Below, one piece after another: positions 6,648 to 54,635 of a stretch of DNA of 64,000 nucleotides. The DNA is from a bacterium (GTDB lineage Bacteria > Pseudomonadota > Alphaproteobacteria > Rs-D84). Where the stretch lies: positions 5,995 to 69,994 of the forward strand of contig JAAVBP010000009.1 in the NCBI GenBank assembly GCA_014803525.1, given 5' to 3'. The notes under the pieces are model-generated. The model was given only the letters and a program-made list of their open reading frames with translations. It did not search any database and was not told where the DNA came from. Numbering within the stretch: the stretch's first letter is position 1; every line of letters begins with the position of its first letter. The translations under genes and the position numbers were made by a program.

Positions 6648-6654
6648 TAAATTT

Positions 6655-6682: not shown

Positions 6683-6713
6683 TGCTGTGCGTCCCAGGAT
6701 TTGAACCTGCGAG
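6683..6713 (-). pseudogene. Degenerate inverted copy of the tRNA-Arg 3-prime half (T arm plus acceptor), a tRNA-like fragment
   Basis: The minus strand reads CGCAGGTTCAAATCCTGGGACGCACAGCA. The neighbouring tRNA-Arg 3-prime half reads CGCAGGTTCGAATCCTGCAGGGCGCGCCA. No matching 5-prime acceptor strand was found, so it is not an intact tRNA. Confidence 0.4.
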
Positions 6714-6889
6714 GCAAGCAGGTCGAACCGCCGCAAAAAGGCAGACGAACGTATGCCGGTTTGCATCAGCAAATTTTGCAAGGTCGGCGAAGCCAATCCT
6801 GCAGGGGCACCCAGCATGGCTAACAAATAATTTTTTTACTATTGAAAAAAAATTGTATTTCACATAAACTAATGCATTGAACAGCAGAG

Positions 6890-16555: not shown

Positions 16556-16882
16556 TTCTCTCTCCTGGGTATTTATTAAAATACAGAATGTTTTTCCATT
16601 TTAATAAAAGCCACATATATTTCAAGCAAAATTCACACAAAAATAACAGAGAATCCGAGTTAGCAATTTATTTCTATTACAAGGATACACGCAGGCTCGC
16701 ACCGCAACCGAGAGATCTGTTCAAACAGGACAAACAACAGTTTGCGTTCGAAAACAAGTAGGTGAGACAAATGCAATGTAGTCGAACCGTTACGGTTTCC
16801 ACGCAGACGCGAAGCGTCGAGAGAATCATGGGGCCCGTCCTAACATAAAATTAAAACCGCCCATACGGCGGTTTTAATTTTA

Positions 16883-16895
16883 TGGTCGGGGCGAC
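16883..16895 (+). other. 13-nt copy of the tRNA-Pro 3-prime end (TGGTCGGGGCGAC), att-like direct repeat
   Basis: Identical to 26714..26726, the CCA end plus acceptor stem of tRNA-Pro on the plus strand. Confidence 0.5.
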
Positions 16896-17084
16896 TATGA
16901 GTAGTTGAGGACAAGCCCAAAGGGCGCCGTTCGAAAAGTCACGAATGCCGCGCAGTCTCGGCGGGCATAGCACGACGGACGAGCGACCTGTTCGAACACA
17001 AACCAACGATTTGTTGTTCGTATTCAGGATTGTCACAACCAAATTTAATAAAACGGGCACCACTTGGTGCCCGTTTTATTAAAC

Positions 17085-17093
17085 CTGGTCGGG
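17085..17093 (+). other. Second, shorter copy of the tRNA-Pro 3-prime end (TGGTCGGGG) directly 5-prime of an X repeat
   Basis: Same orientation as the tRNA-Pro end. Preceded by the hairpin AATAAAACGGGCACCACTTGGTGCCCGTTTTATT. Confidence 0.4.
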
Positions 17094-17448
17094 GTGAAAA
17101 CAAGTAGGCAAGACAAGCAAAGCGCAGTCTAGCCGTCACGGTTTCCCCGCAGGCACGAATGTGCCGAGGGACACGTTCGAACATAGCAAACGACAGTTTG
17201 CGTTCGAATCATGGATCCGTCCTAACATAAAATTAAAACCGCTCATGCGGCGGTTTGAATTTTATGGTCGGTCAGTATTATGTTGCTACGAAACGAATAC
17301 AGGAACCCCATTTTCAGCGATTTACAGCGAATTTCGCACATCGCAACCACACAAAAACGCCATATTTCCGCACTTTTTATCCAAAAATCCAGTAAAATAA
17401 CAGGGAATTTATTATGTTATATCAAAAAAACAACCTATCTCTACAGAC

Positions 17449-20400: not shown

Positions 20401-22371
20401 CCCGGTTGCCACAGTCAACACCACGCCAGCCGTCGCACCTGCTGCAATAATCAACAATTGTTCGTTGTTTTGTAAATCTTTTGCATCCTCAGCACTGGGC
20501 ATACGACAAACCTCGCCATCCCAATATATAGTTTTACATTTTGCACATGTTGCAGCATTTGTTGCCATTAACCTGTTGCACGCCTCCTTGCCCAGGTACA
20601 TACATTCGCGACCGTTATACTGGCCCCCTAGCACCTTGCAATCTATATTTTGCAGACTGCCTTTGTGCAGAGCGTTCTCAAATTCCGACATATCGTCAAA
20701 TACAAAGTCAACCTCTTGATTGCCATTAATAGTGCAACGCAACACATCATCCGTGGACCCCTTGACACTATGCCCTTCAATCTTTGACATTTGACGTGGG
20801 TTTTGAACACAAGAAAAGCTTTTTACGCCACTTTTAACGTTCTGTACATATTTACGCAAACTGCCCTCTATTGTTGGGACCGCCTGAAACTGGATAGCAC
20901 CGGAATAAAAATAATACGAATCAATGCCCGGGATTTCTTTGATTTTATTCTTGCCGCCGCTGTCACCGCCAATTGTAACAAAGACACACTTTCCATTTTC
21001 CCACTTTACGTTATACCCAAGCTTTTTAGCGGTTTTTGCGAAGTTACCATTACACGTTGCAGCAGATATTTTTGTACACTCATTTATCCCCACGCCGCCA
21101 TATATTCCATGGCAAATTGAATACATTACCGATGTCTGAATCATTCCATCAAAAGATTCCTTCACATCATCGAATTTAAATTCGTAATAAACCACCCCGT
21201 CTGTTGTAGCGCATTTTATATAATCGTCATTCCAACTGGTTCGACGATCATTTTGACATACAATTGTATTGCCGTGTTTTACCCGCGCATATTCCTGGGC
21301 TAGTGCAATCGCCTGCATTATCTGAATATTTGTGCTGGAAAAGGCATCAGTTATGCAATATTCTTTCTTGCCGGTTTTGCCTTTGTCTGCACCACAAACC
21401 GCGCGATACATATTACTGTGCTGAAATTCGTCTGTTCCTGGATTACAGACACACTGGTTCTTTGAATGCTGAATAATACTGCCTGTATGTTTACAGTTAT
21501 TTGTATTTGCGTGTTGCTTGCAAAACGCAGTACACAACGCTAATGTATTATTTTGCGATGTTTCCGGATGCATACTGGTGGGACATGCAACGTTTTTGGC
21601 AGCACGCGCCATAGATTCCTTGGCTGCATCAACCTCTGTCGTTTGGGCGTTACAGATACATTCTTTGGTACTGTGCCGCATAACAACATTTGTCACCGCA
21701 CAATTTTCGCGTGTACCCTTGGCCTTGCAAAAGTCGAGACATTTAGCAGATGTATTATTGTCTTTGTTTTCTTTGTGTATGCTGCGCGCACAAAGTGGTG
21801 TTCCAACGGGTATAGGCGTATTGCACGCGCCACCACGCAAGTCATAATTTCCTTTGCACACCAACGCCATACAGGTACAACTGTAACTTTCGTTACGTTG
21901 AAATACAACCTCGCCCATGGCGATATGCGAAGAAGTACATATATCCCCAACACGGGTTTTATCTGTAATAGAGCTTAATTTGTTCGGATTTTTACCATTT
22001 TCATCCAATCCAGGACAAAATCCACCAAGCGCATTTTCATCTACTTCATTGCCGGTATTATTCAACAGTGCCGTCACAAAATTCCGACAGGTTTCAAAGC
22101 CGTTTGCGTGATATGTATTCAGGCCACCCGCACGGCATATTGCAAACAGGTCTGCGATTGATACGGCACCAGTTTCCGGATTCATCAATGTAATATACTT
22201 TTGCGCCATTGCTATCTGACGTTTATCATCAGTAATAAAATCCGGTATCGTAGCCGCCAGATTTTCAGCCGTAAATATATATTTTTGTTCGGCATCCGCA
22301 TAAGTCTTGGGCGCACCAAATGCCGACACTATCATAATCAGTGATAAAAACGCCAGGGCTATTTTCTTCAT
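17449..22371 (-). CDS. Giant secreted/surface multidomain protein (1640 aa) with a Cys-rich N-terminal part, a Gly/Ala-rich hydrophobic segment, about 20 KAEEAR repeats and a tandemly duplicated ~280-aa C-terminal domain
   Basis: Signal peptide MKKIALAFLSLIMIVSAFGAPKTYA. Two ~55-aa Cys modules (C..FCK.....NC...CNxxT.E). Hydrophobic LLIIAAGATAGVVLTVATGGAGAPALALLAV. C-terminal domain A (~aa 1000..1290) and domain B (~aa 1400..1646) share GDFAV, IVIAMTRxDA.AQGL, GDIHGxPVYIESL, ICMVKVGD, PFYISTGTAGKT, PTGKWEFF and GDLRNTE.VLET. The start is set to MKK at 22371; the track ORF starts 6 codons upstream. Confidence 0.8.
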   Translation of the reverse strand: MKKIALAFLSLIMIVSAFGAPKTYADAEQKYIFTAENLAATIPDFITDDKRQIAMAQKYITLMNPETGAVSIADLFAICRAGGLNTYHANGFETCRNFVTALLNNTGNEVDENALGGFCPGLDENGKNPNKLSSITDKTRVGDICTSSHIAMGEVVFQRNESYSCTCMALVCKGNYDLRGGACNTPIPVGTPLCARSIHKENKDNNTSAKCLDFCKAKGTRENCAVTNVVMRHSTKECICNAQTTEVDAAKESMARAAKNVACPTSMHPETSQNNTLALCTAFCKQHANTNNCKHTGSIIQHSKNQCVCNPGTDEFQHSNMYRAVCGADKGKTGKKEYCITDAFSSTNIQIMQAIALAQEYARVKHGNTIVCQNDRRTSWNDDYIKCATTDGVVYYEFKFDDVKESFDGMIQTSVMYSICHGIYGGVGINECTKISAATCNGNFAKTAKKLGYNVKWENGKCVFVTIGGDSGGKNKIKEIPGIDSYYFYSGAIQFQAVPTIEGSLRKYVQNVKSGVKSFSCVQNPRQMSKIEGHSVKGSTDDVLRCTINGNQEVDFVFDDMSEFENALHKGSLQNIDCKVLGGQYNGRECMYLGKEACNRLMATNAATCAKCKTIYWDGEVCRMPSAEDAKDLQNNEQLLIIAAGATAGVVLTVATGGAGAPALALLAVETAGAAIEFEATRRMQNAGDEFLAESRKCNDASCAESMLKRDLQRMADLANDLPDAVVNGIDNELARLAGLIQPNSRFYKDLMKNGTSTGANNKGMSSWQPEEIWRAVGLTLQLASIIKSVVSWGVKKLPRATAALRNGGRGAAGAASHADDTVRAASRAGDVADNANAVNNAETAVVAERQADDVSKAHRESEVATDARKAEEARKAEEARKAEEARKAEEARKAEEARKAEEARKAEEARKAEEARKAEEARKAEEARKAEEARKAEEARKAEEARKAEEARKAEEARKAEEARKAEEARKAEEARKAEEARKAENPVVLSREFIKDEIAELGPVNKVYEGHNVYISAPASNVDASDAVRHIRAKGDFAVSLNTEGASNADEIVIAMTRADAEAQGLAVNGNKLVRKISNSNLTTLNSKIGQTLGDIHGTPVYIESLNDVGVISGRPICMVKVGDRKIPFYISTGTAGKTDIPTGKWEFFAGIDPKSGWFNKGYLDDILNHYGSEELKQIATMLDDKIGDLRNTEYVLETLGRQSLGGRGPVAVIENFRSISVEEVNRYMKITPGRNYQFISNTDDITNYLSGLKSANRATNTSLDNMSARTGLNDLFESAANQNSAGVRQFRKAVASEEEADKIVARLQAQNIYAGKIQRGNQYMVAIVEDSASYESLLPFIQKPKYSAGATKSATATTVKPANNAPSPNRQIIENRLARAGPINKTYADQNVYISSPMRASTAETMANITFAKGDFAVALDTLGYGESSPHIVIAMTRDDAIAQGLNIRGRTLTRTISNPNLASLESKIGRTLGDIHGRPVYIESLSDVGAIHGRAICMVKVGDIKLPFYISTGTAGKTNVPTGKWEFFGGIGRDGWFNKGGDDIIRHYDSVELKQIANILDSEVGDLRNTEMVLETMGRESLGGQGIVATLNDFKSIDINDINKYFPYAPQTHADGGLGGFRNNLAFIKQYLRQLK
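19407..19771 (-). repeat. Coding 18-nt tandem repeat, about 20 copies, translating to (KAEEAR)n
   Basis: GCTTTGCGAGCTTCTTCA-type units with synonymous wobble variation inside the giant ORF. The plus-strand ORFs 19115..20131 and 19174..20037 are antisense artefacts of this repeat. Confidence 0.9.
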
Positions 22372-23324
22372 TTCAATACCCCCGTGCATTTTTCAGCGAT
22401 GGTTGCCACTTTCTTTATCGCGCTGATTTGCGTTGCATTAAATACCGTCGCCGTCGCGGATGCCACCGTGGTTGCACCAGACAGGACATTTGCCGCCGTG
22501 TTTAGATTTTTTTCTTTCTGTTTGCCCGCATCCGTATTATCGTTGCGCGTTTTATCCGTATTTGCGATTGCCGATGTTACCGTACCCGCCGCACCGGTTG
22601 TTGCGCCGACAATCGATGATATCATCGCACCTTTGGCCCGATTGTTTATCTTTGACACATCAACATAATCGTATTCAGCGCAGGCAGCGATAATCTCTTG
22701 CGCCTCTGATACGTCTTCGCCATTGACGCGTGCCTGCATCATAGACTGGCGCAGCTGACTTACCGACGCTTTGCAATCATCAATTTGCGCCTTTAAATCC
22801 TTATCGACCTTATTATTTCCGGCGATAATCGCGCCCGCCACATTGGTCGCAGTACTGCCCGCAATCAGGCCAGTTCGCCAATTACCCAGACGCTTTGATT
22901 GTTTGGTCAGTTTTTCAATTTCATCTTCGATGTCCCGCTTTTCGTCTTTGTTGGCGTCATAGTAATCTTGCATCCGGGCCAATATTTCCGCCCGATTGAT
23001 TTCCGGTGTCGGATTTCCGCGTGTTATTTCTTTTAATTTTTCCAACTCTTTTTCAAGATTTGCAATTTGTTTATCTTTGTTCACCTTTACAATACCAACA
23101 ACGGTTGCACCCGCACCGGCCGCCGTACCAACCGCAGTCACCGCCGTGTTTATTCCAGCCATCTTTTTCAAATCGGCTAATTCATCATCAATGCCAACAC
23201 ATGCAGTATATGTCGCCCGCAACGCATCATCCAATGACAAAATATCAGCATGCGCAACAAGCGGCATAAAACAACACAATAAAGCAACGAAACGCTCTCT
23301 CATTTTTCCCTGGCCGACTGGCAC
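22368..23324 (-). CDS. Secreted coiled-coil protein with four Gly/Ala/Thr-rich hydrophobic segments
   Basis: Signal peptide MRERFVALLCCFMPLVAHA. Segments AVTAVGTAAGAGATVVGIV, TGLIAGSTATNVAGAIIAG, ISSIVGATTGAAGTVTSAIA and LSGATTVASATATV alternate with charged coiled coils. It lies immediately upstream of the giant gene and its stop overlaps the giant gene's start. Confidence 0.6.
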   Translation of the reverse strand: MPVGQGKMRERFVALLCCFMPLVAHADILSLDDALRATYTACVGIDDELADLKKMAGINTAVTAVGTAAGAGATVVGIVKVNKDKQIANLEKELEKLKEITRGNPTPEINRAEILARMQDYYDANKDEKRDIEDEIEKLTKQSKRLGNWRTGLIAGSTATNVAGAIIAGNNKVDKDLKAQIDDCKASVSQLRQSMMQARVNGEDVSEAQEIIAACAEYDYVDVSKINNRAKGAMISSIVGATTGAAGTVTSAIANTDKTRNDNTDAGKQKEKNLNTAANVLSGATTVASATATVFNATQISAIKKVATIAEKCTGVLK

Positions 23325-23406
23325 ATCTATACGAAGGGATTGTTGTAATATTAAATGGGTTGATTTTCCGACTTTTTTTGTTTATAATTTTGGAACAATA
23401 AAAGGT

Positions 23407-24003
23407 TCATATTTTTGAAACAAGGAACCTGGTTATCGTCGGTGGACTGACCCGAATTTTACGTGCAATTTCCCGCTTTGATACACCTGCCGCATACATA
23501 TCCAGAATTAAATTCTCGTGTCCATCTAATATATGGGTCGGATTACGCCCGCCCGCCGGTCGCCCCAGTTTTACACCCCGCATTTGCAGGACGGATAGTG
23601 CCTCCTTGGTTCGCTGGGCGATTAAATTTCTCTCTATTTCTGCGGACAGGCCGAATGCAAACGCTAAAACCTTTGACTGAATATTGTCCCCCAATTCATA
23701 CCCATCTTTGACCGTGTACAGGCGTGCGCCAATTTTCATACAATGTTCCAAAATCCGCATAATCATGAACATCTTTCGCCCAAGACGCGACAGTTCGCTG
23801 CATATTATCACGTCACCCGGTTGCAATCGGCGCAGCATACCACCTAGCGCACGTTCCTCTGGCTCTTTTGTCCCAGATATGCCGGAATCTTCTATATATT
23901 TATCTATGCAAATTCCCAGTTTCGCGGCTTTCGCCTCTATCCCTAGTTTTTGATTTGCGCAGTCTTGTTTGTCGGTTGAAACCCGAATATAGCCATATAT
24001 CAT
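23407..24003 (-). CDS. Small serine recombinase (resolvase/invertase, Hin/TnpR type)
   Basis: MIYGYIRVSTDKQ catalytic serine motif. SELSRLGRKMFMIMRILEHC. C-terminal HTH. About 60% identical to the 57479..58114 protein. Confidence 0.85.
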   Translation of the reverse strand: MIYGYIRVSTDKQDCANQKLGIEAKAAKLGICIDKYIEDSGISGTKEPEERALGGMLRRLQPGDVIICSELSRLGRKMFMIMRILEHCMKIGARLYTVKDGYELGDNIQSKVLAFAFGLSAEIERNLIAQRTKEALSVLQMRGVKLGRPAGGRNPTHILDGHENLILDMYAAGVSKREIARKIRVSPPTITRFLVSKI

Positions 24004-24449
24004 TCAGTGCTCCTTTTATTATCAAATCCAAAGAAATGGTTGCCGGACATTTTGTGGCCGCATATTTCTGTCGCAATCGCCGACAATGTTGAATAAGGCT
24101 TGCCGTTATATGTAAACCTATCATCTGCCAGAACGCGCACGACATGTTCCGTACCACGGAACTTTTTCACTAATTCAGTTCCTGGCTTTAAATGATATTT
24201 AACCTTGTGCGAGCGTCCGCTATATAACTCCGGATCCTTGGCATATTTGTACAAGCGGCTCAAATGTCGTGATTCTATTTTGTATCCCATTTGTTCGCAT
24301 TGAATTTTGTGCCATAAAGGTTTCATCTGGGGCTTGCCGCCAGTAAAGTAATGTCCCCATAATTGCGTTATCTTTTCCTTAGGCATCGCCCGTAAATCCG
24401 CCATATTTTTAGGCAATTCGCCGCAATATTTTCTTAATGCCATAGCCAT
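24000..24449 (-). CDS. Hypothetical protein translationally coupled to the resolvase (possibly a DUF2924-type recombinase partner)
   Basis: 149 aa. Its stop overlaps the resolvase start (ATGA). Ribosome-binding site AAAAGGAC. The DUF assignment is from memory of the recombinase-adjacent family, not verified. Confidence 0.45.
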   Translation of the reverse strand: MAMALRKYCGELPKNMADLRAMPKEKITQLWGHYFTGGKPQMKPLWHKIQCEQMGYKIESRHLSRLYKYAKDPELYSGRSHKVKYHLKPGTELVKKFRGTEHVVRVLADDRFTYNGKPYSTLSAIATEICGHKMSGNHFFGFDNKRSTE

Positions 24450-24559
24450 GTCCTTTTTGTTGCAATTACTGCTTACGTCGCCCCATAAGTCAAGTTAATA
24501 AACCACTGGACTTCTCTCGCTTTGTAAGCACTAATGCCAGCACCCAAGAGGAAAAAAAC

Positions 24560-26191
24560 ATGCAAATTGTTAACTGTGCCGTATATGTTAGAAAATCCAG
24601 CGAACGCGGATTAGACCAAGAATTCAACAGTCTGGACAACCAGGAATTGGCCTGTAAATCATATATCGCATCCCAAACATTCCAAGGATGGCAGTATTTC
24701 AAAACATATAGCGATGGCGGTATCTCTGGCGGGACAATGGCGCGACCGGGGCTGCAAGAAATGCTGAGTGATATAAAAACAGGCAAGATTCAATGCGTAT
24801 TGGTGTATAAAATTGACCGCCTGTCACGCAGCATTTATGACTTTAAGAGCATGATGAAAAAGGATTTTGAACCACATAACTGCAATCTGGTCAGCATTAC
24901 ACAGAGTTTTGACACAAACACAGCCATGGGGAAATTGACACTGAACATGCTACTGTCGTTTGCAGAGTTTGAACGAGAGGTTGCCAGTGAACGCGTCCGT
25001 GATAAAATGCGCGCAACTAAATCAAAAGGCCTGTGGGTCGGTGGGGTGCCGCCGCTGGGCTATGACGTACAATTTGGAAAATTGGTTCCAAATGAAACCG
25101 AGGTTCCATTGGTCAAAACCATATTTGAAACGTATCTAAACAGCACCGGTATACTGGACTGCCGCAATCGTATTGCCGCACTTGGCATTCGGGGCAAAGC
25201 CTGGCAAACCCGAAAAGGCGAAATGCGTGGTGGCCGGGAAATGACCGCGAATATCATTGAACGGGTTTTGAAAAATCAAATTTACCTGGGCAAACTGCCC
25301 AACAAATCAACCGGCGAAGTCTTTGATGGTAAACACCCAGCCATAATCGACAAAACGCTGTTTGACGCAGTCCAAGCTAAAATCCAAGCAAACAACAATC
25401 ACCCAGGTTCCGGATATCGCCTTGGGACGGCATTATTACACAACAAAATACAGACCGCAGACGGAACCATCCTAAAGAATAAATCCGGCCAGAAAAACTA
25501 TAACTCACACCGGCGGTACAGATACTATTACGGTGGCGGCGTATCCCTGCCTATGGGGGATATTGACGCCATTGTAATCGATACAATAAAAAAGTTCCTG
25601 GATTCAGACCTGGGGTGTTTTAATGATGAGAAACGACTATGCTTCAAACAAACCGCGTTTTCACCAGAGCTTATCGCCCCAATGATTGCCAAGATTGTGT
25701 ATTATTGCCAAAAACTGGTAATATTTATAAACATTGCAGACCTAGGATACCTGACCCAATTCCGCAACACAGGTCCTATAAATACAAATAACCATCCAAT
25801 GCCGTGTGCTATATCGGCCGATGGAAAATACGCCATAATTGAGACAGACGTTATTATATCCAGTCGAACATGCATAAACCATCGAAACAGTGGCGGCAGT
25901 CGGGATTTATTAACCAAAACCGAAAACGCAACAATGTTAATCAAGGCCCTGGGATACGCATGGAAATACAAGCAACAATACGAAAGCGGAACCGGAATTC
26001 GTGAACTGGCCGAAACAGAAAAACGCGACCAGCGCACGATTTACAAATACTTAAATCTGGCATACCTGTCGCCACGGATTATCAATGATATCATGGACAG
26101 CAAAATCCCACCCCACATCAACCTGCAGACCTTGTTCCAGATTGCAAGTAAGTATGATAATTTCGCGGAACAGGAACGGGAGTTTTATTAA
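24560..26191 (+). CDS. Large serine recombinase
   Basis: Resolvase-type N-terminal domain (VYVRKSSERGLDQEFNSLDNQ, DRLSRS). Recombinase domain GLWVGGVPPLGYDV. Long C-terminal extension. GAGGAAAAAAAC ribosome-binding site. Divergent from the resolvase pair. Confidence 0.85.
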   Translation: MQIVNCAVYVRKSSERGLDQEFNSLDNQELACKSYIASQTFQGWQYFKTYSDGGISGGTMARPGLQEMLSDIKTGKIQCVLVYKIDRLSRSIYDFKSMMKKDFEPHNCNLVSITQSFDTNTAMGKLTLNMLLSFAEFEREVASERVRDKMRATKSKGLWVGGVPPLGYDVQFGKLVPNETEVPLVKTIFETYLNSTGILDCRNRIAALGIRGKAWQTRKGEMRGGREMTANIIERVLKNQIYLGKLPNKSTGEVFDGKHPAIIDKTLFDAVQAKIQANNNHPGSGYRLGTALLHNKIQTADGTILKNKSGQKNYNSHRRYRYYYGGGVSLPMGDIDAIVIDTIKKFLDSDLGCFNDEKRLCFKQTAFSPELIAPMIAKIVYYCQKLVIFINIADLGYLTQFRNTGPINTNNHPMPCAISADGKYAIIETDVIISSRTCINHRNSGGSRDLLTKTENATMLIKALGYAWKYKQQYESGTGIRELAETEKRDQRTIYKYLNLAYLSPRIINDIMDSKIPPHINLQTLFQIASKYDNFAEQEREFY

Positions 26192-26496
26192 CTCTTGAGA
26201 TTGGACTTTATAAAATCAATAACACGCGTTTTATATTCGTCATCACCATTTAAAACACTGATATTTAGCCGTGTATCAAAATTTGTCTCAGCCGAGCCTT
26301 CTTGCACATCAACAACCCTTATTACAACCTCTGGTTTCACCCCTGTTTCATCCTGGTAAGTCAACGCCAACTGCTTGGCCCTTTCATTAAGTTTGTTCTC
26401 TATTATTGACGGATTTTGCTTTATTTTTTGTTTTGCTGCATTCAGTATATCTTTTTCTATTTTTTTTGAATCAAATTTTGTTGTAACTTTAAACAT
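26188..26496 (-). CDS. Hypothetical small protein (102 aa), convergent with and overlapping the large serine recombinase
   Basis: AGGAGAAAAC ribosome-binding site 6 nt before ATG (MFKVTTKFDS). Lys/Glu-rich. No recognised domain. Confidence 0.45.
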   Translation of the reverse strand: MFKVTTKFDSKKIEKDILNAAKQKIKQNPSIIENKLNERAKQLALTYQDETGVKPEVVIRVVDVQEGSAETNFDTRLNISVLNGDDEYKTRVIDFIKSNLKS

Positions 26497-26713
26497 GTTT
26501 TCTCCTATATTTATCACGGTACATATAGGTATTTGAGCTAACATTTTCAACCCCAATTGACTCCGCGAAAATGGGCATTGTATACCTTCTGGTATATTAT
26601 GGGCAGATTTGCGTATATTCGGTGAATACCAGAGTCAATGCATTTCGCAAATGCCCGCGTTTTGCGGCGGACACATAAAAAAAGCCGCGACAATGCGCGA
26701 CCTTTCTAATTAC

Positions 26714-26790
26714 TGGTCGGGGCGACATGATTCGAACATGCGACATCTTGCTCCCAAAGCAAGCACTCTACCAGACTGAGCTACGCCCCG
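26714..26790 (-). tRNA. tRNA-Pro (anticodon TGG), CCA encoded
   Basis: Minus-strand cloverleaf: CGGGGCG acceptor, D arm, anticodon stem CTTGC/GCAAG with loop TTTGGGA, T arm GCATG-TTCGAAT-CATGT, acceptor CGCCCCG, then A and CCA. Confidence 0.9.
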
Positions 26791-32260: not shown

Positions 32261-32725
32261 ATGGCAGGCAGCATAAATAAAGTTATACTGGTTGGAAACG
32301 TAGGACAAGATCCCCAAGTTCGCACAATGAACAGTGGTCAAAAAGTGGTCAGTTTTTCACTGGCGACATCGGAACGCTGGCGCGACCGTCAATCTGGCGA
32401 ACAGAAAGAACAAACCGAATGGCATCGCGTTGTGATATTTAACCCGAATCTGGTAGATGTTGCCGAACGCATGTTGCAAAAGGGAACGAAACTGTACCTG
32501 GAAGGTTCATTGAAAACCCGCAAGTGGCAGAACCAGCAAGGCATGGACGTTTATACAACCGAAGTTGTATTAAATCCGTTCATGGGCCAGATGGTTATCT
32601 TAAGCGGTGTTAAGGCAATGGATGGTGGCATGCCGGGCGAGTATGGCCCTGCCCCGTCTGCGGCGCCGATGGCCCCACGTGAAGAAATTTCTGTGGCCGA
32701 AATCGGCGACGACATTCCGTTTTAA
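32261..32725 (+). CDS. ssb: Single-stranded DNA-binding protein
   Basis: OB-fold N-terminus NKVILVGNVGQDPQVR. Gly/Pro-rich linker. Acidic tail ending DDIPF. Confidence 0.9.
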   Translation: MAGSINKVILVGNVGQDPQVRTMNSGQKVVSFSLATSERWRDRQSGEQKEQTEWHRVVIFNPNLVDVAERMLQKGTKLYLEGSLKTRKWQNQQGMDVYTTEVVLNPFMGQMVILSGVKAMDGGMPGEYGPAPSAAPMAPREEISVAEIGDDIPF

Positions 32726-32750
32726 ACGGAATGGAGGAGCCGAAGGGGAT

Positions 32751-32829
32751 GAAAACAAGTAGGCAAGACAAGCGATAGCGTAGTCGAGCCGTCACGGTTT
32801 CCCCACAGGCACGCAAGTGCCGAGGGACA
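32751..32829 (+). repeat. Third copy of the X repeat element, inserted at the ssb 3-prime end with a 13-bp duplication
   Basis: GAAAACAAGTAGGCAAGACAAGCGATAGCGTAGTCGAGCCGTCACGGTTTCCCCACAGGCACGCAAGTGCCGAGGGACA. Flanked by GACATTCCGTTTT (32711..32723) and GACATTCCGTTCT (32826..32838). Confidence 0.6.
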
Positions 32830-32845
32830 TTCCGTTCTAAAAAAA

Positions 32846-32873
32846 TCCCCCATTTGGGGGATTTTTTTTATTT
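32846..32873. terminator. Bidirectional intrinsic terminator (ATCCCCCATTTGGGGGAT with A and T runs)
   Basis: Perfect 7-bp GC stem. A8 upstream and T9 downstream. Confidence 0.7.
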
Positions 32874-33074
32874 ACGTACCGCCCACCACAGGGCCCACAA
32901 CCATCCAACACCGGTCCATCCGAACAGCCAGCTGGCCACACGAACAAAGCCCATATCCGTTTTACTCTTTTTTGTTTGTCGCGCCAACCACGCCGGTGCC
33001 AGTATTATTATCATCAATACCACCGCGGCCCCGACATATCGCGCATATAACAAAATTTCTGACGGTACTTGCAT
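32868..33074 (-). CDS. Possible small membrane protein (68 aa)
   Basis: Two hydrophobic helices (AAVVLMIIILAPAWL and WLFGWTGVGWLWALWW). Ends at the terminator. Weak support. Confidence 0.3.
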   Translation of the reverse strand: MQVPSEILLYARYVGAAVVLMIIILAPAWLARQTKKSKTDMGFVRVASWLFGWTGVGWLWALWWAVRK

Positions 33075-34513: not shown

Positions 34514-37500
34514 ATGATAAAAAAGCTATTTTCTTTTATTTTCTGCCTGGCGCCGGTTGGTGCAATGGCGGCAACGGTTGACCTGGTTCCGGGGGATGGA
34601 AATGGAAATATAGAAATCCCCAGCACGCAATATCCGGAATATCCGACCGGATTAAACATACCCGCAACAGGTAACAGTGCGGTTATTCAAAACGCCCTGA
34701 ACGATGATGGGACCACAAAATATATAGCCAAGTATTTGTCACTGGGCAATAATGGGATGAATGTGGCAAATCTGTCAGTTGGGGATTATGCATCCGGCGA
34801 AATCGGCTGGGGCGAAAAAGGCTTCTTATATATAGCAAATGATACGGCATCCAGCACCGCAGATGGATTCCTGATCAGTTCAACGGGAAGCGTTTCTATT
34901 GCAACTTTGTTACGCGTATTATCTGATCAATCGTTAACCATTGCGGGTACAACCAATACACTGATTGATCTAAGCGTTGGTGACGGCACAACAAACAGCG
35001 GAATTCAAAATGCAGGTGTTTTAAATCTGACAAATATTGACGGTTTTGTCGCAGGATCGCCAGTTTCCAATACCGGCAGCATCTTGGCCATCGATGCAAA
35101 CACGGTAAACATGCAATCACTTGACACAACAAATGGCAATGTGACGGTCAATGCAAATGAAGCGGATGCACTAAAAATATCGGCATATATCCAAAATAAT
35201 ATAACCAGTGGCGGCGCCGCAGAATCAACGAAACTTACGGCATATAATATGACCGTTGGCGGCACAATACAAAATGGTTCCGGGACAATGGATATTACAA
35301 TGAATGGCGGAAACCTGCTGGTGGGTGGTTCCATTGAAAACAAGTCCGGCAGTGATATGAACATCACCTATTCCGATGCATCCATTACCACATCAACAAT
35401 ATCGGTAAACGGCGCCATCACAAATGAAGGTAATTCGTCATCTATGGTAATCAAAACCGGCGGAAACCTGAATATATCTGGCCAGTATACACCAGAATCC
35501 GGCGAACCCACATATGGCAATGCATCAATTGTAAATGGGGGTAATTTGTACATTGATGTTGGCGGAACAATAACGCTGAATAACGGTTTTGATATCAGCA
35601 CAATGGCCCAGACCAATACGTTGGAAATCAAAACAGGCAAATTGACCGTCGGAAACAGTGACGCATCACATTGGCTAGACCTGTTTTCAAACAGATTGAA
35701 TAAATATGTGCTGAACATAACAAACGATTCGCTAAATTTGGGCACAACCGGCATAACCAACGGGTCTGATAACAACGCAAATGCCAATATGACACTAAGC
35801 GCACAGAATGTAACGGCCGGCCTGGTTACAAATAACGGCGACAAGTTATATATTGCGTTACCATCACTGGATAACAACGGGACCGAGGTTGTAAATCCAA
35901 TAACCGGAAACATTACGATTACCGGTAATGTTACAGGGAATTCGGGTGTAACGACCCTGGCTGCGGGCGGAACACTGGGAACCGGCGCGGTTAACAACAG
36001 CGCCACAATGAATCTTAGCGGCGAAGGCGGTACAACCATTGCATCTGTTTCAAATTCTGGAACATTAACAGTATCATCATTAACCAGCAGTACCGGCAAT
36101 ATTAATATCATTGGTGACGTTACAAATACCGGCAATGCAACAATTACATCACGCGCAATCACAATTGGCGGCAACATCGTAAACAATGCCGGGAATTTAG
36201 CCATATTAGGATCTGATGATGGCACAGGGGCCGCGGTCAACCTGGGGGCATTAACAGCGGCCGGCGGTCAAACAACATTGAACGCACTGGTCGGGCAGAT
36301 AACCATGAATGGAAATTTGGATGTTACCAGTGGTGGCCTGAATATGGGTGGCGCAACAACCAACCTTGATGTAACAGGTGCAACAACGGTAAATGGGGAC
36401 ATTACATTGGCTGCAATTGATAACAGCACCATTTTACCGGCTGGGACAATGAATATCAGCAACAGTGGCACCCAAAAATTTGTTCTGACATCCACCGATG
36501 GAATAACGGTTGGCGGTAATATTCTGGCCACACAAAATGATTTTGCGCGCACGGCCCAGTTTGTAGCAAAAAACCAGTCTGACGGCACCGTCCAGAAAAT
36601 AACCGTCGGTACATCTGATACAAATGGAAATATCACAGCCACAGGGCGTGGTCATCTGATATTCGGTGACGCAGGAAATCAATCCGAACTAACCGCCACG
36701 GGTACTGTTTCTGCTACAAAATCTAATAATAATATCGGCAGCATTGAATTTTATGGCAACCAGACAACAGTTGGCGCCTTGGCCGGCGACGGCTTATTCA
36801 TTGCGCATGGAACAATGAATGACGATGATGCCGAAACATCCATTACGGCAACAACCGGGAATATAAATATAACCGACGCAATTTACTTTAATAATCCGGC
36901 AACCGACCCGTCAACCGGATTGATTATCAAAGACACCAAGAATTTTACACTTAACACGAACAGCGGCAGCATTGGTGTCGGTGGAATTGAATTAACCACA
37001 GGCAACACATTAAAACTGGATTCTGCATCCAACCTGGCGGTAACAGGTACAATTGAAAATACAGGCAACCTGACGTTACAGGCGGCGGAACTGGCATTCC
37101 TGGCCCAGGATTTGACCAACAACGGCACAATCAAAATTGATGCCGCAACAATTGATATGCAGGATATAACGAATAATGCAGCGGCCGACCTGGTCGCTAG
37201 GGATATCCGTGCCGGCAATATTACCGCAAACGCGAACAGCGCCATGACCATTACATCCGATGATTTGGCGGCGGGTGCACTGGATATCGCAGAAAGCGGC
37301 GTTGTAAATTATGATGTAGGTGACGCCACATTCACAGGCGCCATAACTGTAAACGGGAATATTGTCCAGGGTACACCGGACAATACAGATGGTGCATTGA
37401 ATATAATACGCGCAACAAATCTGACCGCCGATTCATTAAATTTAACCGGCAGCTTTATCACGAAATCTGGTGCGGGCGTATATGATTTTAAAAACAACGT

Positions 37501-39787
37501 TACCATATCCGGGGACATAAGCACAACTGGTGGCCAGACACATATTTTCGCCAGAAACGGTAAATTAACCGCAAAAGATATAAATAATACAGCAACATTA
37601 ACACTGTCCGGCGCGAATGGCATTGATATCACAGACACCATTGCATCCACTGGTAATTTAACATTAGATTCTGGCACAGGCTTGACAACAGCAGATACAA
37701 TTTCGTTGGCCGGCACAACAACATTATTGGGCACAGGGTTAAGCACACCGAACACATTCGCGCAAAATACACTGTACCAAAATTATGGCGGCACATTGAT
37801 GGGCGGTGATGTAAATGTTATATCTTCTGATTATACAATAACGGCATCTGATGTGGCCCTGGGCAGCCTGGCGCAAATATATGGCCACATGACATTGAAT
37901 ACCAGTGATCTAAGGGTTGTCGATAGTATTGATGCAACAGATCTGCGCGTTGCAGCAAACCCGTCGACAACATGGCTGACGGTCGATGTTGGCGGCAACG
38001 TTTCAGGCAACACACAATTCATCGGACTGGGTCACATGAAAATTGGCGGAAATTATACATATAATTCCAACAGCAACCTGATGATGGCAATATTGTCACC
38101 GAACGATGCCGGACGTGATTATTGGGCTGATATTAGCATGACCGACGATCAAACATTCGGTCAGATAACAAATCGCAGCCCAGACGCCGAACCGTTAATA
38201 TCTGTGGGCGGGACATTTATCACAGATTTGACAATGAATTTCTCTGATCGGGCGGGTCTACAGAGCAATGGCGAAATGGGTGTCGAAATATTCGACATGA
38301 TTGACCAAGGAACCGCAATATGGTTACTGAATGCCCAAGGCGGCATCCGCGAAGAAGGATCAAAAATTCGCAATATTGTGGTTAAATTCTGTAATGCCGA
38401 CGGTACGAAATGCTTTGATTACTTTAAACCCGCGGTTGGTCTGAATGAAACAGGTACGGATCTGCCGGCATACATATCCGTACGCGACACGACCAGCGAT
38501 GGTATCGCCGACAGCCTGTATCTGGTATTTGATCCGCGCTTTGGCGGCCCGGTAGAGGTGTTTAAGATCCAACCAATTGTCGGTCGTGAAAATGACCATA
38601 CAAAAAATGAATATCTAACTGCGGGCGCACTGGACGATATGATTGCAGGCGGTCTGGCCGATGCAAAATTCAATAATCGCACCCCGATAGAGGCGATCCC
38701 GGTCGCATTTGCCGGCACGAACATGGAAACCGCCGCAAATGAAATCTATAAGCGTATGGAATATTATACCGAAACACATGATGGCCACAGTCTGGCCCGT
38801 ATCAGCCGCCTGTTCCAGCCACGCGAAACAGAACAGATATCGGGCGCAATTGTGCTGAATGAACATACATCTTTCCGCGATTTCGAAGACCACATGCTGG
38901 ACGAATTTATCTGGAATCGCAATCGCAACCTGCGCAAGGCCTGGGGTGAATTTGACTTTGGCTTGGTCCGTCAAAACACCTCCGATGACGAGCGCGCGTC
39001 TGCGAACCGTTTCAGTTTTACCGGTGGATATGATTGGCAGGAAACCCAAACCCTGATATTGGGTCTGGCCGCGCGTGTATCCCACACATCCGGCAACAAT
39101 AATACCCATATAGACTTAAGCTATATCCCAGGCCAATCGATTGCCGGGAATGTCGATATAGATGTTGCGGATACAGATTTTGGCGTGGGCGCATATATGT
39201 TGAAAAACATGGGGACCAAGATGCGGGTATACGGCAACGCATTCTTGGATCTGCACTGGCTGGACGTGACACGTAATCAGACATATATGTCATCAATATC
39301 CGGCGACACTACTGCATTTAGTCTGATATCCGAATGGGGATTGATGCACGATTGGTTAAACCAATATATTGTTGGCAATGCATATGCACGCGTCGGGTAT
39401 AATTTTGGATTCTCGATGACGGAAGAAGCGGCCGGCGATGAGTATCTGAAGCTGAAATCAGATGGTTACTTTATCGTAACACCGGGATATACCCTGACCG
39501 CCCAAAAGCGTATATATCCGTCCCCGTGGTTCCAGATGCGCCCCTATGCGTCCGTCGGTGTCGAATACGATGTATTGGGCGCACCGGATAATGCGAAATA
39601 CAAGTTTGCGGCGGCACAAAACTTTACAAAATATGATATCGAGATTGATCCGCTGTGGGCAAATATCGGTGGCGGTATGGAATTCCTGTCGGTGACGGGC
39701 GTCCAGGTTGGCCTGGATTACCGGTACCAGTATAATGCCGACATCCAAATGCATAAGATAAAGTTGTCCGGATCATACCGCTTCTAA
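34514..39787 (+). CDS. Large autotransporter (type Va) outer-membrane protein with a ~1450-aa Gly/Asn/Thr-rich beta-helical passenger
   Basis: Signal peptide MIKKLFSFIFCLAPVGAMA. Repetitive passenger (NGTIKID and GNLTL motifs). C-terminal ~280-aa beta-barrel with alternating hydrophobics, ending ...KLSGSYRF. Confidence 0.85.
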   Translation: MIKKLFSFIFCLAPVGAMAATVDLVPGDGNGNIEIPSTQYPEYPTGLNIPATGNSAVIQNALNDDGTTKYIAKYLSLGNNGMNVANLSVGDYASGEIGWGEKGFLYIANDTASSTADGFLISSTGSVSIATLLRVLSDQSLTIAGTTNTLIDLSVGDGTTNSGIQNAGVLNLTNIDGFVAGSPVSNTGSILAIDANTVNMQSLDTTNGNVTVNANEADALKISAYIQNNITSGGAAESTKLTAYNMTVGGTIQNGSGTMDITMNGGNLLVGGSIENKSGSDMNITYSDASITTSTISVNGAITNEGNSSSMVIKTGGNLNISGQYTPESGEPTYGNASIVNGGNLYIDVGGTITLNNGFDISTMAQTNTLEIKTGKLTVGNSDASHWLDLFSNRLNKYVLNITNDSLNLGTTGITNGSDNNANANMTLSAQNVTAGLVTNNGDKLYIALPSLDNNGTEVVNPITGNITITGNVTGNSGVTTLAAGGTLGTGAVNNSATMNLSGEGGTTIASVSNSGTLTVSSLTSSTGNINIIGDVTNTGNATITSRAITIGGNIVNNAGNLAILGSDDGTGAAVNLGALTAAGGQTTLNALVGQITMNGNLDVTSGGLNMGGATTNLDVTGATTVNGDITLAAIDNSTILPAGTMNISNSGTQKFVLTSTDGITVGGNILATQNDFARTAQFVAKNQSDGTVQKITVGTSDTNGNITATGRGHLIFGDAGNQSELTATGTVSATKSNNNIGSIEFYGNQTTVGALAGDGLFIAHGTMNDDDAETSITATTGNINITDAIYFNNPATDPSTGLIIKDTKNFTLNTNSGSIGVGGIELTTGNTLKLDSASNLAVTGTIENTGNLTLQAAELAFLAQDLTNNGTIKIDAATIDMQDITNNAAADLVARDIRAGNITANANSAMTITSDDLAAGALDIAESGVVNYDVGDATFTGAITVNGNIVQGTPDNTDGALNIIRATNLTADSLNLTGSFITKSGAGVYDFKNNVTISGDISTTGGQTHIFARNGKLTAKDINNTATLTLSGANGIDITDTIASTGNLTLDSGTGLTTADTISLAGTTTLLGTGLSTPNTFAQNTLYQNYGGTLMGGDVNVISSDYTITASDVALGSLAQIYGHMTLNTSDLRVVDSIDATDLRVAANPSTTWLTVDVGGNVSGNTQFIGLGHMKIGGNYTYNSNSNLMMAILSPNDAGRDYWADISMTDDQTFGQITNRSPDAEPLISVGGTFITDLTMNFSDRAGLQSNGEMGVEIFDMIDQGTAIWLLNAQGGIREEGSKIRNIVVKFCNADGTKCFDYFKPAVGLNETGTDLPAYISVRDTTSDGIADSLYLVFDPRFGGPVEVFKIQPIVGRENDHTKNEYLTAGALDDMIAGGLADAKFNNRTPIEAIPVAFAGTNMETAANEIYKRMEYYTETHDGHSLARISRLFQPRETEQISGAIVLNEHTSFRDFEDHMLDEFIWNRNRNLRKAWGEFDFGLVRQNTSDDERASANRFSFTGGYDWQETQTLILGLAARVSHTSGNNNTHIDLSYIPGQSIAGNVDIDVADTDFGVGAYMLKNMGTKMRVYGNAFLDLHWLDVTRNQTYMSSISGDTTAFSLISEWGLMHDWLNQYIVGNAYARVGYNFGFSMTEEAAGDEYLKLKSDGYFIVTPGYTLTAQKRIYPSPWFQMRPYASVGVEYDVLGAPDNAKYKFAAAQNFTKYDIEIDPLWANIGGGMEFLSVTGVQVGLDYRYQYNADIQMHKIKLSGSYRF

Positions 39788-41172: not shown

Positions 41173-44100
41173 TTACCCTTCGCCGTTGCGCTTCTTTTCT
41201 GGCATATCATGCATCGCAAACTGTGCCAGATATTTTTTCAGCTCAGTCTTGTACTGATTATTCGCCTTGGCCATTTCAACCAGCATGTCAAAGTGCGGAT
41301 TGTTTGCGCTGGCGGCCTTGAAACGCGATTCTGTTTTCAAGAAATCTTCCAATGCCACCGTCGTTGCAGTCGGCGAATCCATCATCAGCGGGTTTTCGCC
41401 CTGCTCTACGCGTCGTGGGTCAAAACGATACAGCGGCCACGCCCCGGTGTTTACCATGTCGGCCTGATGTTGCGGTCCATTCTGCAATGCGTATCCGTGT
41501 GCAATACACGGCGCATATGCCAGGATGATTGATGGACCGGGATAGCTTTCTGCCTCACGAAAGGCTTTTATTGCCTGGGCCTGGTTTGCACCCATGGCGA
41601 TTTGTGCCACATATGCACCAGACATCATCGCAATCATGCCCAAATCTTTTTTCGCATGTTCTTTACCGCCGATGGCGAACTTCATACTGGCGCCGAACGG
41701 TGTAGATTTGGACTGTTGCCCACCGGTATTCGAATACCCCTCGGTATCCAGAACCAGGATATTCACATTTTCACCGCTGTGCAGAATATGATCCAAACCG
41801 CCATAACCGATGTCATACGCCCAACCGTCACCACCGATAATCCATACAGATTTATCAACGATTTCGCCAATCAAGCTCTCGGCAAGTCTCGCACGTGGCC
41901 CATCGATTTTAGCCAGTTTTCCGCGCAGTTCATCCGCGGCCACGCGCGCGTCACTACCGGTCTTATCAAACAATTCTTCGACATTTTCAAAGCCCAGTTC
42001 GAACAATAATGATTTCAGCGTGTCGCGTTTCTGATTCAGCGCAAGGCGCATCCCCAAACCGTATTCCGCATTATCTTCGAACAATGAATTAGACCATGCC
42101 GGCCCACGACCATTTGCATCCGTTGTCCACGGTGTTGTCGGCAAATTCGCACCATAGATAGATGAACAACCCGTCGCATTCGCAACAACCATGCGGTCAC
42201 CGAATAATTGCGCCAGCATACGAACGTACGGCGTTTCGCCACACCCCGCACATGCGCCCGGGAACTCGAAATAGTTTGGCAATAATTCCAAATGTTTTGG
42301 AATATTCAGATTTAATTTTTCGCGCGGGAATTCCGGGAATTTTTCGGCCGCATCGAACTGCGCCTGTTCGCGCATACCAACCTCAGCCGCCGCCTTTAAT
42401 GACAATGCCTTTACCGGGCAATTATTCACACAGATATTGCACCCTGTGCAATCCGCCGCAGAAATATTCAGCGTAAAGTACATATCCGGCCCCAGTTCTG
42501 GCGTCTTCATCGGAACGACAATGATACCTTCCTTGCGGGCGGCATCGGCCTGCTCTGCTGTCAAGGCCTTGATACGAATAACCGCATGCGGACACAGCAT
42601 TGCGCATTTTCCACACTGGATACATTTATCCAAATCGCACGCAGCAACCATGTCGGATACGGCACGTTTTTCATACTTCGATGTGCCAACCGGATACTGA
42701 CCACCACCAAAAGCGCCATCTACACGGAAACGTGATACCGGTATTGCGTCACCACGCTGCGCGGCAATCTCGCCAAGTGTCCCCGCGATTTCCGCCGGCG
42801 CATTGTGTGTCATCGCCGGGACAAAGTCTGGCGCATTTTCATCAATCGATGATGGCAGGTTTACCTTCTGCAAGAATTCGGACGCCCTGTCAACCGCAGC
42901 CCAATTGGCCTGAACGATTTCCATACCCTTTTTCTTATATGTTTTTTCAATTGCAACCTTGGCCGCATCCGCCGCGACAGATGGGTCAATCACATGCGTC
43001 AAATTAAAGAAGTTCAGCATGATGAATGTGTTAATACGATTCCCCAGTCCCAATTCACGCGCCGCACGGTTCGCATCCAATACGTAAACATTTGCACGCA
43101 TACGTATCAAGTGCTCCTGGGCATCACGTGGCAGGCTTGCAAATGCTGCGCTTGGGGTCATGGACGTATTAATCATGACCGTACCGCCCGCGCGCAACCC
43201 CTTAAACACATCAAAACGTTGCGCAATCATAAAGTTTGAAACGCTGATGAAATCCGCGACTTCAATCAAGTACTGACTTTTAATCGGGCTGTCCGAAAAA
43301 CGAATATGCGACGCCGTAAGTCCCCCCGACTTCTTCGAATCGTATACCGCATAAGACTGGGGATATAAATCAGAATTTTCGCCAACGATTTTCACGATAT
43401 TTTTAACCGCGCCAACCGTACCATCCGAACCAATACCATACAGAATGGCCGTTTTGAAATTCGGATCTTCGACCGCGAATGCCGGGTCTGTTTTCAAAGA
43501 CAAGTTCGTCAAATCATCGTCAATACCAACCGTGAAATTATGTTTCAAAGTATCACGCATCAGGTTTTCATACACCGCCTTGACATCGCGCGGTTTAAAT
43601 TCCTTGGACCCCAGGCCATAACGCCCACCAAACACTGCCGCCGCGTCACCGACAACAGTCTTGACATCTTGGTACAGCGGTTCGCCAAGTGCGCCTGGTT
43701 CCTTGGTACGGTCCAGCACCGCAATACGCTTTACCGATTTCGGCAATGCCGCCAAGAAAGCGTCGCGCGGGAACGGGCGATACAAATGAATTTTCAGCAG
43801 CCCCAGTCCCTTTGGCAAATGCGCCAGTGTTTCCTCTATCGTTTCGCACGCGCTGCCCATTGCGACGATAACATTTTCAGCATTTAGGTCACCAACATAG
43901 TCAACCAAGTTGTACGCACGACCAGTGAGCTGGGCAAACTTATCCATACATTCCTGCACGATTTCAGGTGTTTTATCATACAGCGGATTTGCAGCCTCGC
44001 GCCCCTGGAAATAAACGTCCGGATTCTGGGCCGTACCACGAATTGTCGGCCGATCCGGGGTCATACCACGGGCCCGATTTTCAAGAACGAGTGCATCCGG

Positions 44101-53507: not shown

Positions 53508-53572
53508 CCGCCGGATTTTTATAAATTTGCCAGAATGCCATAATCAATTAGCCATCCGATTCCTGGGAAACT

Positions 53573-53670
53573 AATTAGAACGGCCTATCGTAAATTAGTT
53601 AGAATGAGATAAGTGCGCCGTTGCCGACAAGCGTAATGTACAAGACGTACATGAGCGCGTCGGCAACAAG
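53573..53670. repeat. Hairpin repeat element H (copy 2): stem GTTGCCGAC/GTCGGCAAC around the loop ...TGTACAAGACGTACATGAG
   Basis: Same 18-nt core and TTAGAATGAG leader as 41079..41150. Directly 3-prime of tsf. Confidence 0.5.
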
Positions 53671-53686
53671 CAATTGTCCATTATAA

Positions 53687-54556: not shown

Positions 54557-54635
54557 TGTTTTCTCCCATCATTAATTATTATTTTTGAAACATGCCGGGG
54601 CGCGCAAATGGACGCCCCATATCGGCACACTTATA

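Follow-up and report, generated by a model that had tools for sequence, protein, structure and literature searches.

The window, by which we mean the whole 64,000-nt stretch of DNA that we analyzed (contig JAAVBP010000009.1 of GCA_014803525.1, positions 5,995-69,994, forward strand), carries an ssb gene on the plus strand (32261..32725). Its 154-aa product has PF00436 homologues at 81-97% identity and ends in ...AEIGDDIPF, and the last codons of the open reading frame are GAC ATT CCG TTT TAA. The end of this gene occurs twice. The 13-mer GACATTCCGTTTT at 32711-32723 has a second version, GACATTCCGTTCT, at 32826-32838, and the corresponding 15-base versions, GACATTCCGTTTTAA (32711-32725) and GACATTCCGTTCTAA (32826-32840), differ by one change. 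TAA and one more A follow both 13-mers, so that the ssb-end repeat comes to 16/17 nt and D-I-P-F-stop can be read in both. The earlier note on this DNA had described the 13-bp repeat, and it is real: a sequence search of the whole 64 kb returns only these two matches. Chance does not account for the repeat: five related lineages show this pairing at their own ssb ends.

The repeat is part of a longer array on the plus strand. Local alignment to the downstream DNA delimits the segment of the functional ssb 3' end that is duplicated (D1, GCCGAAATCGGCGACGACATTCCGTTTTAAA, 32696..32726). A perfect 21-nt palindrome, CATTCCGTTT-T-AAACGGAATG (as a whole, CATTCCGTTTTAAACGGAATG), runs across the stop codon (32713..32733), with its partner arm at 32724-32733. 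The alignment then places the left part of a spare ssb end (D2a, GCCGAAGGGGATGA, 32739..32752), which holds the codons for AE-GD and the GA of the next D. Downstream of it lie a structured element, X (32753..32827, AAACAAGTAGG...CCGAGGGA), which folds into two hairpins and scores 95.4 bits with our covariance model (E 2.9e-22), and the right part of the spare ssb end (D2b, CATTCCGTTCTAAA, 32828..32841), located by sequence and alignment. A bidirectional intrinsic terminator (32841..32868, stem at 32846-32860 plus T run), whose homologue follows the ssb stop directly in locus L050 of a relative, is the only one found 3' of ssb. X thus lies between the repeats with the terminator after it, as had been claimed. 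Its size had been put at ~100 nt, a figure that has to be corrected to 75 nt, the length defined by 22 other copies. The stretch of 27 nt that separates X from the ssb stop (32726-32752) does not belong to the element. X is outside the translated open reading frame, and because the terminator ends the ssb transcript beyond X, the element is probably co-transcribed within the 3' UTR.

When X is deleted in silico, the DNA after the stop reads GCCGAAGGGGATGA^CATTCCGTTCTAA (in longer context ACGGAATGGAGGAGCCGAAGGGGATGA^CATTCCGTTCTAA; ^ marks a junction here and below) and translates as ...AEGDDIPF-stop. D2a and D2b are contiguous in ssb, and X splits D2 in the second Asp codon, GATGA^CATTCC. The spare ssb end measures ~31 nt, and D1 (32696-32726) and D2 (32739-32752 plus 32828-32841) agree at 25/28 aligned bases with one 3-nt gap, an alignment score reached by 1/2000 shuffles. 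The second 13-mer is therefore a composite, made of the last two bases of X (GA) and the first eleven bases of D2b. The spare ssb end is an untranslated duplicate of the last ~10 codons that sits between the true stop and the terminator.

Two minor points concern the sequence GGGGATG (32745-32751) in the spare copy. We considered it as a second inverted copy of CATTCC, with the linker as a guide, and dropped this idea, as removal of X gives direct ssb codons (GDD). Where the spare copy has GGGGATG, ssb has GGCGACG, and both changes give better pairing with CATTCC (32828-32833) across X, resulting in a 6-bp stem that closes the element. This stem may reflect selection for a closing helix, or chance. 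The X-free junction of the spare copy would read GGGGATGA^CATTCCG.

The boundaries of X were set from 22 distinct sites, and its fold was derived from an alignment of 19 copies. P1 (GAAA/UUUC), P2 (GGC/GCC), P3 (GAC/GUC), and P4 make up domain 1, while domain 2 consists of P5 (CCC/GGG) and P6, a hairpin of free sequence. Standard pairs fill 96% of the paired cells, compared with 30-45% for slid partners. The covariation score of 0.224 compares with 0.095 for shuffles (0/500 reach it) and 0.014-0.061 for slid controls, and compensatory double changes occur in eight pairs. P1, the helix that spans the left junction, is invariant and so lies beyond covariation testing. The RNA fold has a z-score of -7.4, the DNA-parameter fold is modest (z = -2.35), and the sequence is ~90% conserved across genera. 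X has no coding capacity. Rfam 15, including its ribozymes, group II intron D5-D6, and tmRNA, gave no match to X up to E 10, returning terminator look-alikes only. In a scan of a genome collection with a 20-nt X motif, nearly all copies came from uncultured alphaproteobacteria of the gut (Candidatus Enterousia and its relatives), and a scan of JGI metagenomes with X gained only three useful loci.

In the window, the covariance model finds three X copies, one longer relative (X'), and one X2-type relative, all on the plus strand. X copy 2 (17098..17171, 90% identical to the ssb copy) occupies the site TGGTCGGGGTGA^CACGTTCGAAC in an antisense remnant of a tRNA-Pro 3' half. X copy 3 (16752..16824, 77% identical) has the T-loop-like flanks GCGTTCGA^ATCATGGGGCCCGTCC. 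X' (16895..16986, 92 nt, E 0.004) is flanked by GGGGCGA^CCTGTTCG, and the 63-nt X2-type relative (16653..16715) lies at the center of the palindrome AACAGAGA^TCTGTT and is of the same type as the element at the ssb sites of L013, L051, and L055. X, X', and X2 share the right-end domain CRCAGG-hairpin-CCGAGNGA and are one structured repeat family of Enterousia-like gut alphaproteobacteria. Our literature search found no account of miniature elements that target T-loops, and none of Enterousia repeats. Viral contigs, scanned twice with X motifs, yielded zero matches, which leaves no evidence for X as a phage attP arm.

Could X be a host RNA module, that is, a structure in 3' UTRs and tRNA trailers or a small RNA that is under selection and is not mobile DNA, with the repeats as by-products? 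The strong covariation, the conservation across genera, the RNA fold, and the position before a terminator, which entails co-transcription, all fit such a module. However, X is present or absent among close relatives and occurs in multiple, tandem, and nested copies; it interrupts T-loops and the antisense tRNA-Pro remnant; and different elements are found at the same site. We consider this explanation very unlikely, with the qualification that mobility and an RNA role of X are not mutually exclusive. We also considered X as a T-loop intron, as a two-piece tmRNA-like gene, or as a remnant of group II intron D5-D6. These candidates were rejected, as neither ARAGORN nor Rfam lends them support and the upstream gene copies are already complete.

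The insertion sites of X follow a simple rule. The two bases to its left are GA at 22/22 distinct sites, preceded by GGTTC (GGTTCGA in all) at 16 of the 22, and the right flank begins with ATCC, CAYT, or similar, usually ATCC. The usual site, GGTTCGA^ATCC, is the sequence of a tRNA T-loop (the target of the family can also be written as GGTTCGAATCC-like), and all T-loop insertions of X are in the sense orientation. X has an intact tRNA gene 65-186 nt to its 5' side and on its own strand at 14 loci; these genes are for Ser, Gly, Lys, Gln, Pro, Tyr, Arg, or Glu. When X is removed from the tRNA loci, its flanks join into an intact T-arm, acceptor 3' strand, and CCA. The rejoined flanks are 90-100% identical to the adjacent tRNA from the 5' strand of the T-stem up to 42 nt past the gene, and the rejoined T-loops carry that tRNA's own variant (GAATCC, GAGTCC, or GATTCC). 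Exact repeats of tRNA 3' ends span 20-54 nt, and the duplicated length at tRNA loci ranges from ~20 to >60 nt. Most X copies are thus inside a spare partial 3'-end copy of an adjacent intact tRNA. Besides X, about 13-90 nt separate the copies at ssb and at the short tRNA units, and no integrase is found there. In L024, X' and X stand in tandem within one T-loop, and in L048 a further small hairpin is nested within X. In L021, X lies within a full-length tRNA-Gly, but only next to a second tRNA-Gly that is intact.

Several of these loci have features of their own. L021 contains a ~1-kb tandem duplication (3900-5150, minus strand) with two tRNA-Gly(CCC) genes. The first has X in its T-loop and is followed by a free-standing partial 3' copy that has no X and is flanked by the inverted repeat GTACGC/GCGTAC; the second is intact, with the usual X unit downstream. 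In L048 (~1566-1695, minus strand), where X is 3' of tRNA-Glu, the nested 28-nt hairpin CCCATAAAAATCGTTAGATTTTTATGGG is flanked by a 14-nt direct repeat, GATAAGCGA(T/A)ATCG, and looks like a genuine insertion of another tiny element, with flanks resembling a target-site duplication. Just upstream of X, a module called 'Y', in which two GGTTCGA motifs enclose a short hairpin that covaries (GCAAC-GAA-GTTGC, GCGAC-GAAA-GTCGC, and variants), is seen in the window at 16556-17448 and in the type-B linkers of L020, L027, L028, L030, L035, and L037. This module, too, may be a mini-insert, one whose insertion restores the GGTTCGA^ target.

These sites bear directly on how the repeat at ssb arose. The earlier note had taken the 13-mer pair for the target-site duplication of X: an element of ~100 nt would have transposed into the ssb end, and a 13-bp staggered cut would have produced a classical duplication that regenerated DIPF-stop. 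Near-identical 13-16-mers do flank ~100 nt that are lacking from the empty loci L050 and L056. However, a survey of other copies for target duplications, which the note had proposed, found none such at the 22 tabulated X sites, with only the invariant GA on the left. Moreover, the 27 nt to the left of X hold ssb-derived sequence, X lies within the second copy, the duplicated length varies at tRNA loci, and the same D2a occurs in L055, which carries a different element. A target-site duplication of this kind is highly implausible. The duplication made by X itself is nil or at most the 2-bp GA, which X's own end also carries, and a 2-bp GA duplication, as from a serine-recombinase crossover, is indistinguishable from no duplication.

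Orthologous ssb loci in relatives show what the site looks like with and without an element. Empty sites, at which the stop is followed directly by spacer and terminator, are found in L050, L056, L008-11, and L012, and L050 shares the synteny of the window (ssb, immunity ORF, enolase). The comparison with empty sites had been named as a check, and its outcome supports the earlier view that a non-coding mobile element was inserted at the ssb 3' end. Filled sites have the order D1, palindrome arm, D2a, element after GA, D2b; they occur in L013-18, L051-54, and L055, all with X2-type elements, and L057 has a truncated version of this layout. X and X2 are found at the identical GA^ position of ssb in sister lineages that share the D2a deletion. 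In L002-7, only GCCGAGGGA (the last 9 nt of X, being the 7 nt between the copies and the following GA) lies between the stop and D2b. A 13-mer pair without an insert, named in advance as the finding that would contradict an insertion, does exist there, but because the intervening bases equal the last 9 nt of X, it is a deletion remnant and not a pre-existing repeat.

The age of the spare copy can be read from the same loci. D2a is identical at 13/14 bases between the window and L055 and has the same 3-nt deletion relative to ssb. Since this deletion is common to both and the elements differ (X in the window, X2 in L055), the duplication predates the split of the two and is older than, and separable from, the present X. 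The idea that the insertion regenerated the gene end thus holds in part: ssb keeps an intact end because that end exists twice, but the second copy did not come with the present X. Within a lineage, D1 and D2 resemble each other (27/28 in L013) far more than either resembles its counterpart in another lineage, and this points to concerted evolution. The base before GGC in D2a follows the lineage's own ssb in L013 and L051. The palindrome arm co-varies with the Ile/Pro codons in the five filled lineages (ATT CCG/CGGAAT; ATT CCA/TGGAAT; ATC CCA/TGGGAT; ATA CCA/TGGTAT) and is absent at empty sites, and D2b has a partner arm of its own in L055, L013, and L002. On the ssb neighbor-joining tree, filled and empty loci are intermingled, a pattern compatible with recurrent loss through D1-D2b recombination, with recurrent gain, or with both. 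A 177-aa 'long SSB' (P0025, L049) was considered as a fusion with an element and set aside, since it comes from a 0.6x-coverage contig with a frameshifted, L012-type empty locus and is an assembly or gene-calling artifact.

The mosaic at 16556-17448 offers a second comparison of this kind. It holds TGGTCGGGG(C/T)GA, which is the tRNA-Pro 3' end in reverse complement. In L033, a matching series of hairpins and elements abuts the functional tRNA-Pro without interruption. The window and L033 are collinear up to TGGTCGGGG(T/C)GA, after which the window has X copy 2 and CACG-TTCGAACAT and L033 has CATGATTCGAACAT. The functional tRNA-Pro of the window (26714-26790, minus strand) lies ~9.5 kb off, beyond an island bounded by TGGTCGG. 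This island of ~9.5 kb (17272-26713), absent from L033, fills the interval between the partial tRNA-Pro 3' copy (TGGTCGG at 17265-17271) and the functional gene. It encodes a 1646-aa protein with a long EARKAE tandem repeat at 17449-22389, followed by a small resolvase (23407-24003), a DUF2924 protein (24000-24449), and a large serine recombinase (24560-26191). In this arrangement, the spare tRNA-Pro 3' copy in the window is an att-type product of island integration, with X within it.

An integrative mini-cassette has to be weighed as well. Here the whole block of gene-end copy, palindrome arm, D2a, and X would be mobile and would recombine with gene 3' ends through 13-50 nt of shared sequence, the repeats being att cores, in a manner likened to tRNA-targeting islands or to hairpin att sites (CTXphi, integron attC). 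The duplicated tRNA segment spans the T-arm to CCA and beyond, as at T-loop-class integrase sites, which were reportedly compared by Williams in 2002. The inverted copies adjoin the real gene end, the interspersed filled and empty states on the ssb tree would be expected of a mobile block, and linker motifs recur in units at different tRNAs. However, X is inside the second copy and not between an att pair, whereas a hairpin att site predicts an uninterrupted second copy, and there is no integrase adjacent at ssb or at the short tRNA units. Furthermore, the lineage-matched base of D2a in L013 and L051 and the vertical inheritance of D2a in the window and L055 favor a local origin with concerted evolution. 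A mobile block of this kind is doubtful, if conceivable.

The inverted copies of gene ends beside the true end (the ssb palindromes, L036, and tRNA-Arg) are unexplained by simple insertion. At tRNA-Arg(TCT), a downstream unit (6689..6813, plus strand, within window 6648-6813) has the layout seen at ssb: terminator, inverted copy of the T-arm and acceptor (6689-6710; 22/28 by count), GCAGGTCGAA (6718-6727), insert, and direct 3'-end copy (6795-6813). The insert of ~67 nt is unrelated to X and does not end in GAGNGA. For the 3' halves of tRNAs, inverted copies exceed shuffles at some loci only (23/28 in L036, 16/19 in L021 and L031). It has also to be asked whether the insertion itself makes the duplicate, with an element nuclease breaking the T-loop or the ssb tip and with fold-back or template-switch repair at hairpins then producing direct, inverted, and direct copies. 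This is the order observed at ssb in five lineages and at several tRNAs, the palindromes are centered on terminator loops or the stop codon, and spare copies are rare at tRNAs without inserts. Yet the second direct copy at ssb begins upstream of the end of the inverted copy, which is not the mirror geometry of two template switches; the inverted copy is no better than shuffles at most tRNA loci; and the island accounts for the spare copy of tRNA-Pro. We regard duplication by insertion-triggered repair as unlikely. The association of X with spare copies is in part an ascertainment effect, because the X-bearing tRNA loci were found by an X search. Nine tRNAs that were not picked via X, a small sample, gave one weak match to an uninterrupted spare copy, and this scarcity hints that duplication and insertion may be coupled rather than independent.

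Taken together, we propose that the members of the X family are very small mobile elements with a specific target site, which persist only where the end of an essential gene is present in a redundant copy, a reading to which we assign a probability of about 0.6. It is carried by two precise pairs of filled and empty sites, ssb in the window versus L050/L056 and the tRNA-Pro position in the window versus L033. The ssb target, GA(C/T)GA^(C/T)ATTCC, resembles the T-loop site TTCGA^ATCC. The C-terminal tail of E. coli SSB is a hub for partner proteins. An insertion at the functional ssb target would cut off the last three residues (IPF) of this tail, and where a tRNA T-loop or the SSB tip exists just once, an insertion in it would presumably be lethal, so that only insertions in redundant 3'-end copies would persist. 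The spare copies may go back to short tandem duplications of a unit with a hairpin, or they may be att-type repeats that island integration has left behind.

With lower confidence, X may travel in single-stranded form, with cutting and joining confined to one strand and to the position after GA, as in IS200/IS605 or REP elements. GA^AA pairs with UUUC in P1, which never varies, and GGG pairs with CCC in P5, so that the two helices might bring the ends of X together on one continuous strand, GGTTTCCCC. We favor single-strand movement because there is no duplication, the target flank is conserved, the hairpins are conserved by structure, the ends are joined by P1/P5, and a 75-bp duplex circle is sterically implausible. 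The same steric argument led us to set aside a serine-recombinase crossover at the 2-bp GA, which fits the junctions and for which such enzymes are present; we keep it as a caveat only. tRNA-primed reverse transcription, in which a copy would start near A58, was rejected, as the inverted repeats run on through trailer and terminator, which does not agree with a primer that ends at the mature CCA. A scan of ~40 open reading frames of the window and tblastn over 348 kb detected no HUH/Y1 transposase, tyrosine integrase, or reverse transcriptase, which is a weak negative, and tblastn with IS200, IS608, and RAYT queries gave no match in the relevant loci. More tentatively still, X, X', and X2 could form a previously undescribed 60-90-nt class that homes to T-loops and look-alikes and whose insertion is coupled to re-creating the gene end as direct and inverted copies, possibly via a host- or island-borne enzyme acting on hairpin DNA.

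How does X compare with known small elements? The miniature elements of IS200/IS605 (PATEs) and the REP/REPIN sequences (Y1 HUH, RAYTs) are, like X, tiny and non-coding, with hairpins conserved by structure and not by sequence. They too insert 3' of a short fixed sequence in a fixed orientation and without target duplication, and insert in tandem at the regenerated site. The GTAG and imperfect palindrome of X domain 1 are, we assume, reminiscent of REP heads. However, no cognate transposase was found for X, its two hairpins are unlike each other, counter to the usual IS200/IS605 ends, and the T-loop is not known as a target there. Three of five features expected of a single-strand element are present in X; the other two are a Y1 HUH transposase (TnpA or RAYT) in the genome and cleavage sites that pair with an internal guide, for which P1 and P5 would be candidate pairings.

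Rickettsia palindromic elements (RPEs), compared by description only, are small structured repeats of reduced alphaproteobacterial genomes, as X is. The RPEs of Ogata et al. (work of 2000 and 2002) are said to insert into genes, including RNA genes, with no known transposase or typical target-site duplication. RPEs are in frame and translated with the host protein, whereas X is found in untranslated spare gene ends and T-loops. tRNA-targeting islands of the T-loop class, with tyrosine integrases, resemble the X loci in duplicating the T-arm to CCA and leaving the gene intact, and the tRNA-Pro island of the window is classical in this respect. The X loci differ from them in the short spacing (15-90 nt between the copies at ssb and most tRNA loci), the lack of an integrase, and the position of a small element inside the T-loop of the second copy. 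Direct repeats of gene 3' ends bracket inserted DNA at ssb and at the tRNAs, and the bracketed DNA holds a recombinase only in the tRNA-Pro island. Classical MITEs (such as Correia and ERIC) are, like X, short non-autonomous repeats, and casposons give rise to duplications of 14-15 bp at tRNA or EF-2 gene 3' ends, to which a target-site duplication at ssb would be similar. X differs in having neither terminal inverted repeats of its own nor a duplication of fixed length. A transposon that makes target-site duplications would show a repeat of fixed length at every copy and would lie between the repeat copies, and X does neither.

We rate X as a small non-autonomous bacterial mobile element with an unusual target, the T-loop and its look-alike in the SSB tip. 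By analogy, it would be nearest to the IS200/IS605 miniatures and REP elements in its working and to RPEs in its lifestyle, with a gene-end duplication like the att sites of islands. A 75-nt selfish element can thus occupy the ends of indispensable genes (tRNAs and ssb) without killing the cell. X also defines a conserved, structured, and unannotated repeat family in poorly known gut alphaproteobacteria with reduced genomes, and annotators should beware of decoys, since a 'DIPF-stop' or the 3' half of a tRNA that follows a true gene can be a mere copy. If the coupling of insertion and gene-end duplication is true, it would be a new strategy of mobile DNA, a self-rescuing invasion of essential genes. 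If the two are uncoupled, X would still serve as a natural marker, and a precise one, both for spare sites of the att kind and for DNA recognition that is specific to T-loops.

Some further features of the ssb region and the window deserve mention. Between ssb and enolase, the window has a 68-aa open reading frame (32868-33074, minus strand) with a weak match to PF14373 (superinfection immunity) below the curated cut-off, and this frame is kept in L002 and L050. The region 3' of ssb is a variable spot at the strain level: L013-15 and L017 have an SSB identical to that of L016 and L018, and the sequences of the two sets part right after ...GGGTTTTTCATAGGATA 3' of the ssb terminator. Beyond the terminator, one strain set has an EcoRI-like methylase and a gene with an SNase domain, and the other has a 512-aa open reading frame on the opposite strand. 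A further mobile region may lie at window positions 53000-64000, where small open reading frames that have no Pfam match surround a subtilase (55675-57510) and the third serine recombinase (57479-58342). Finally, two open reading frames are very large, 41173-44679 (1168 aa) and 34514-39787 (1757 aa), and the latter, which has an N-terminal signal-like sequence, looks like an autotransporter or adhesin.
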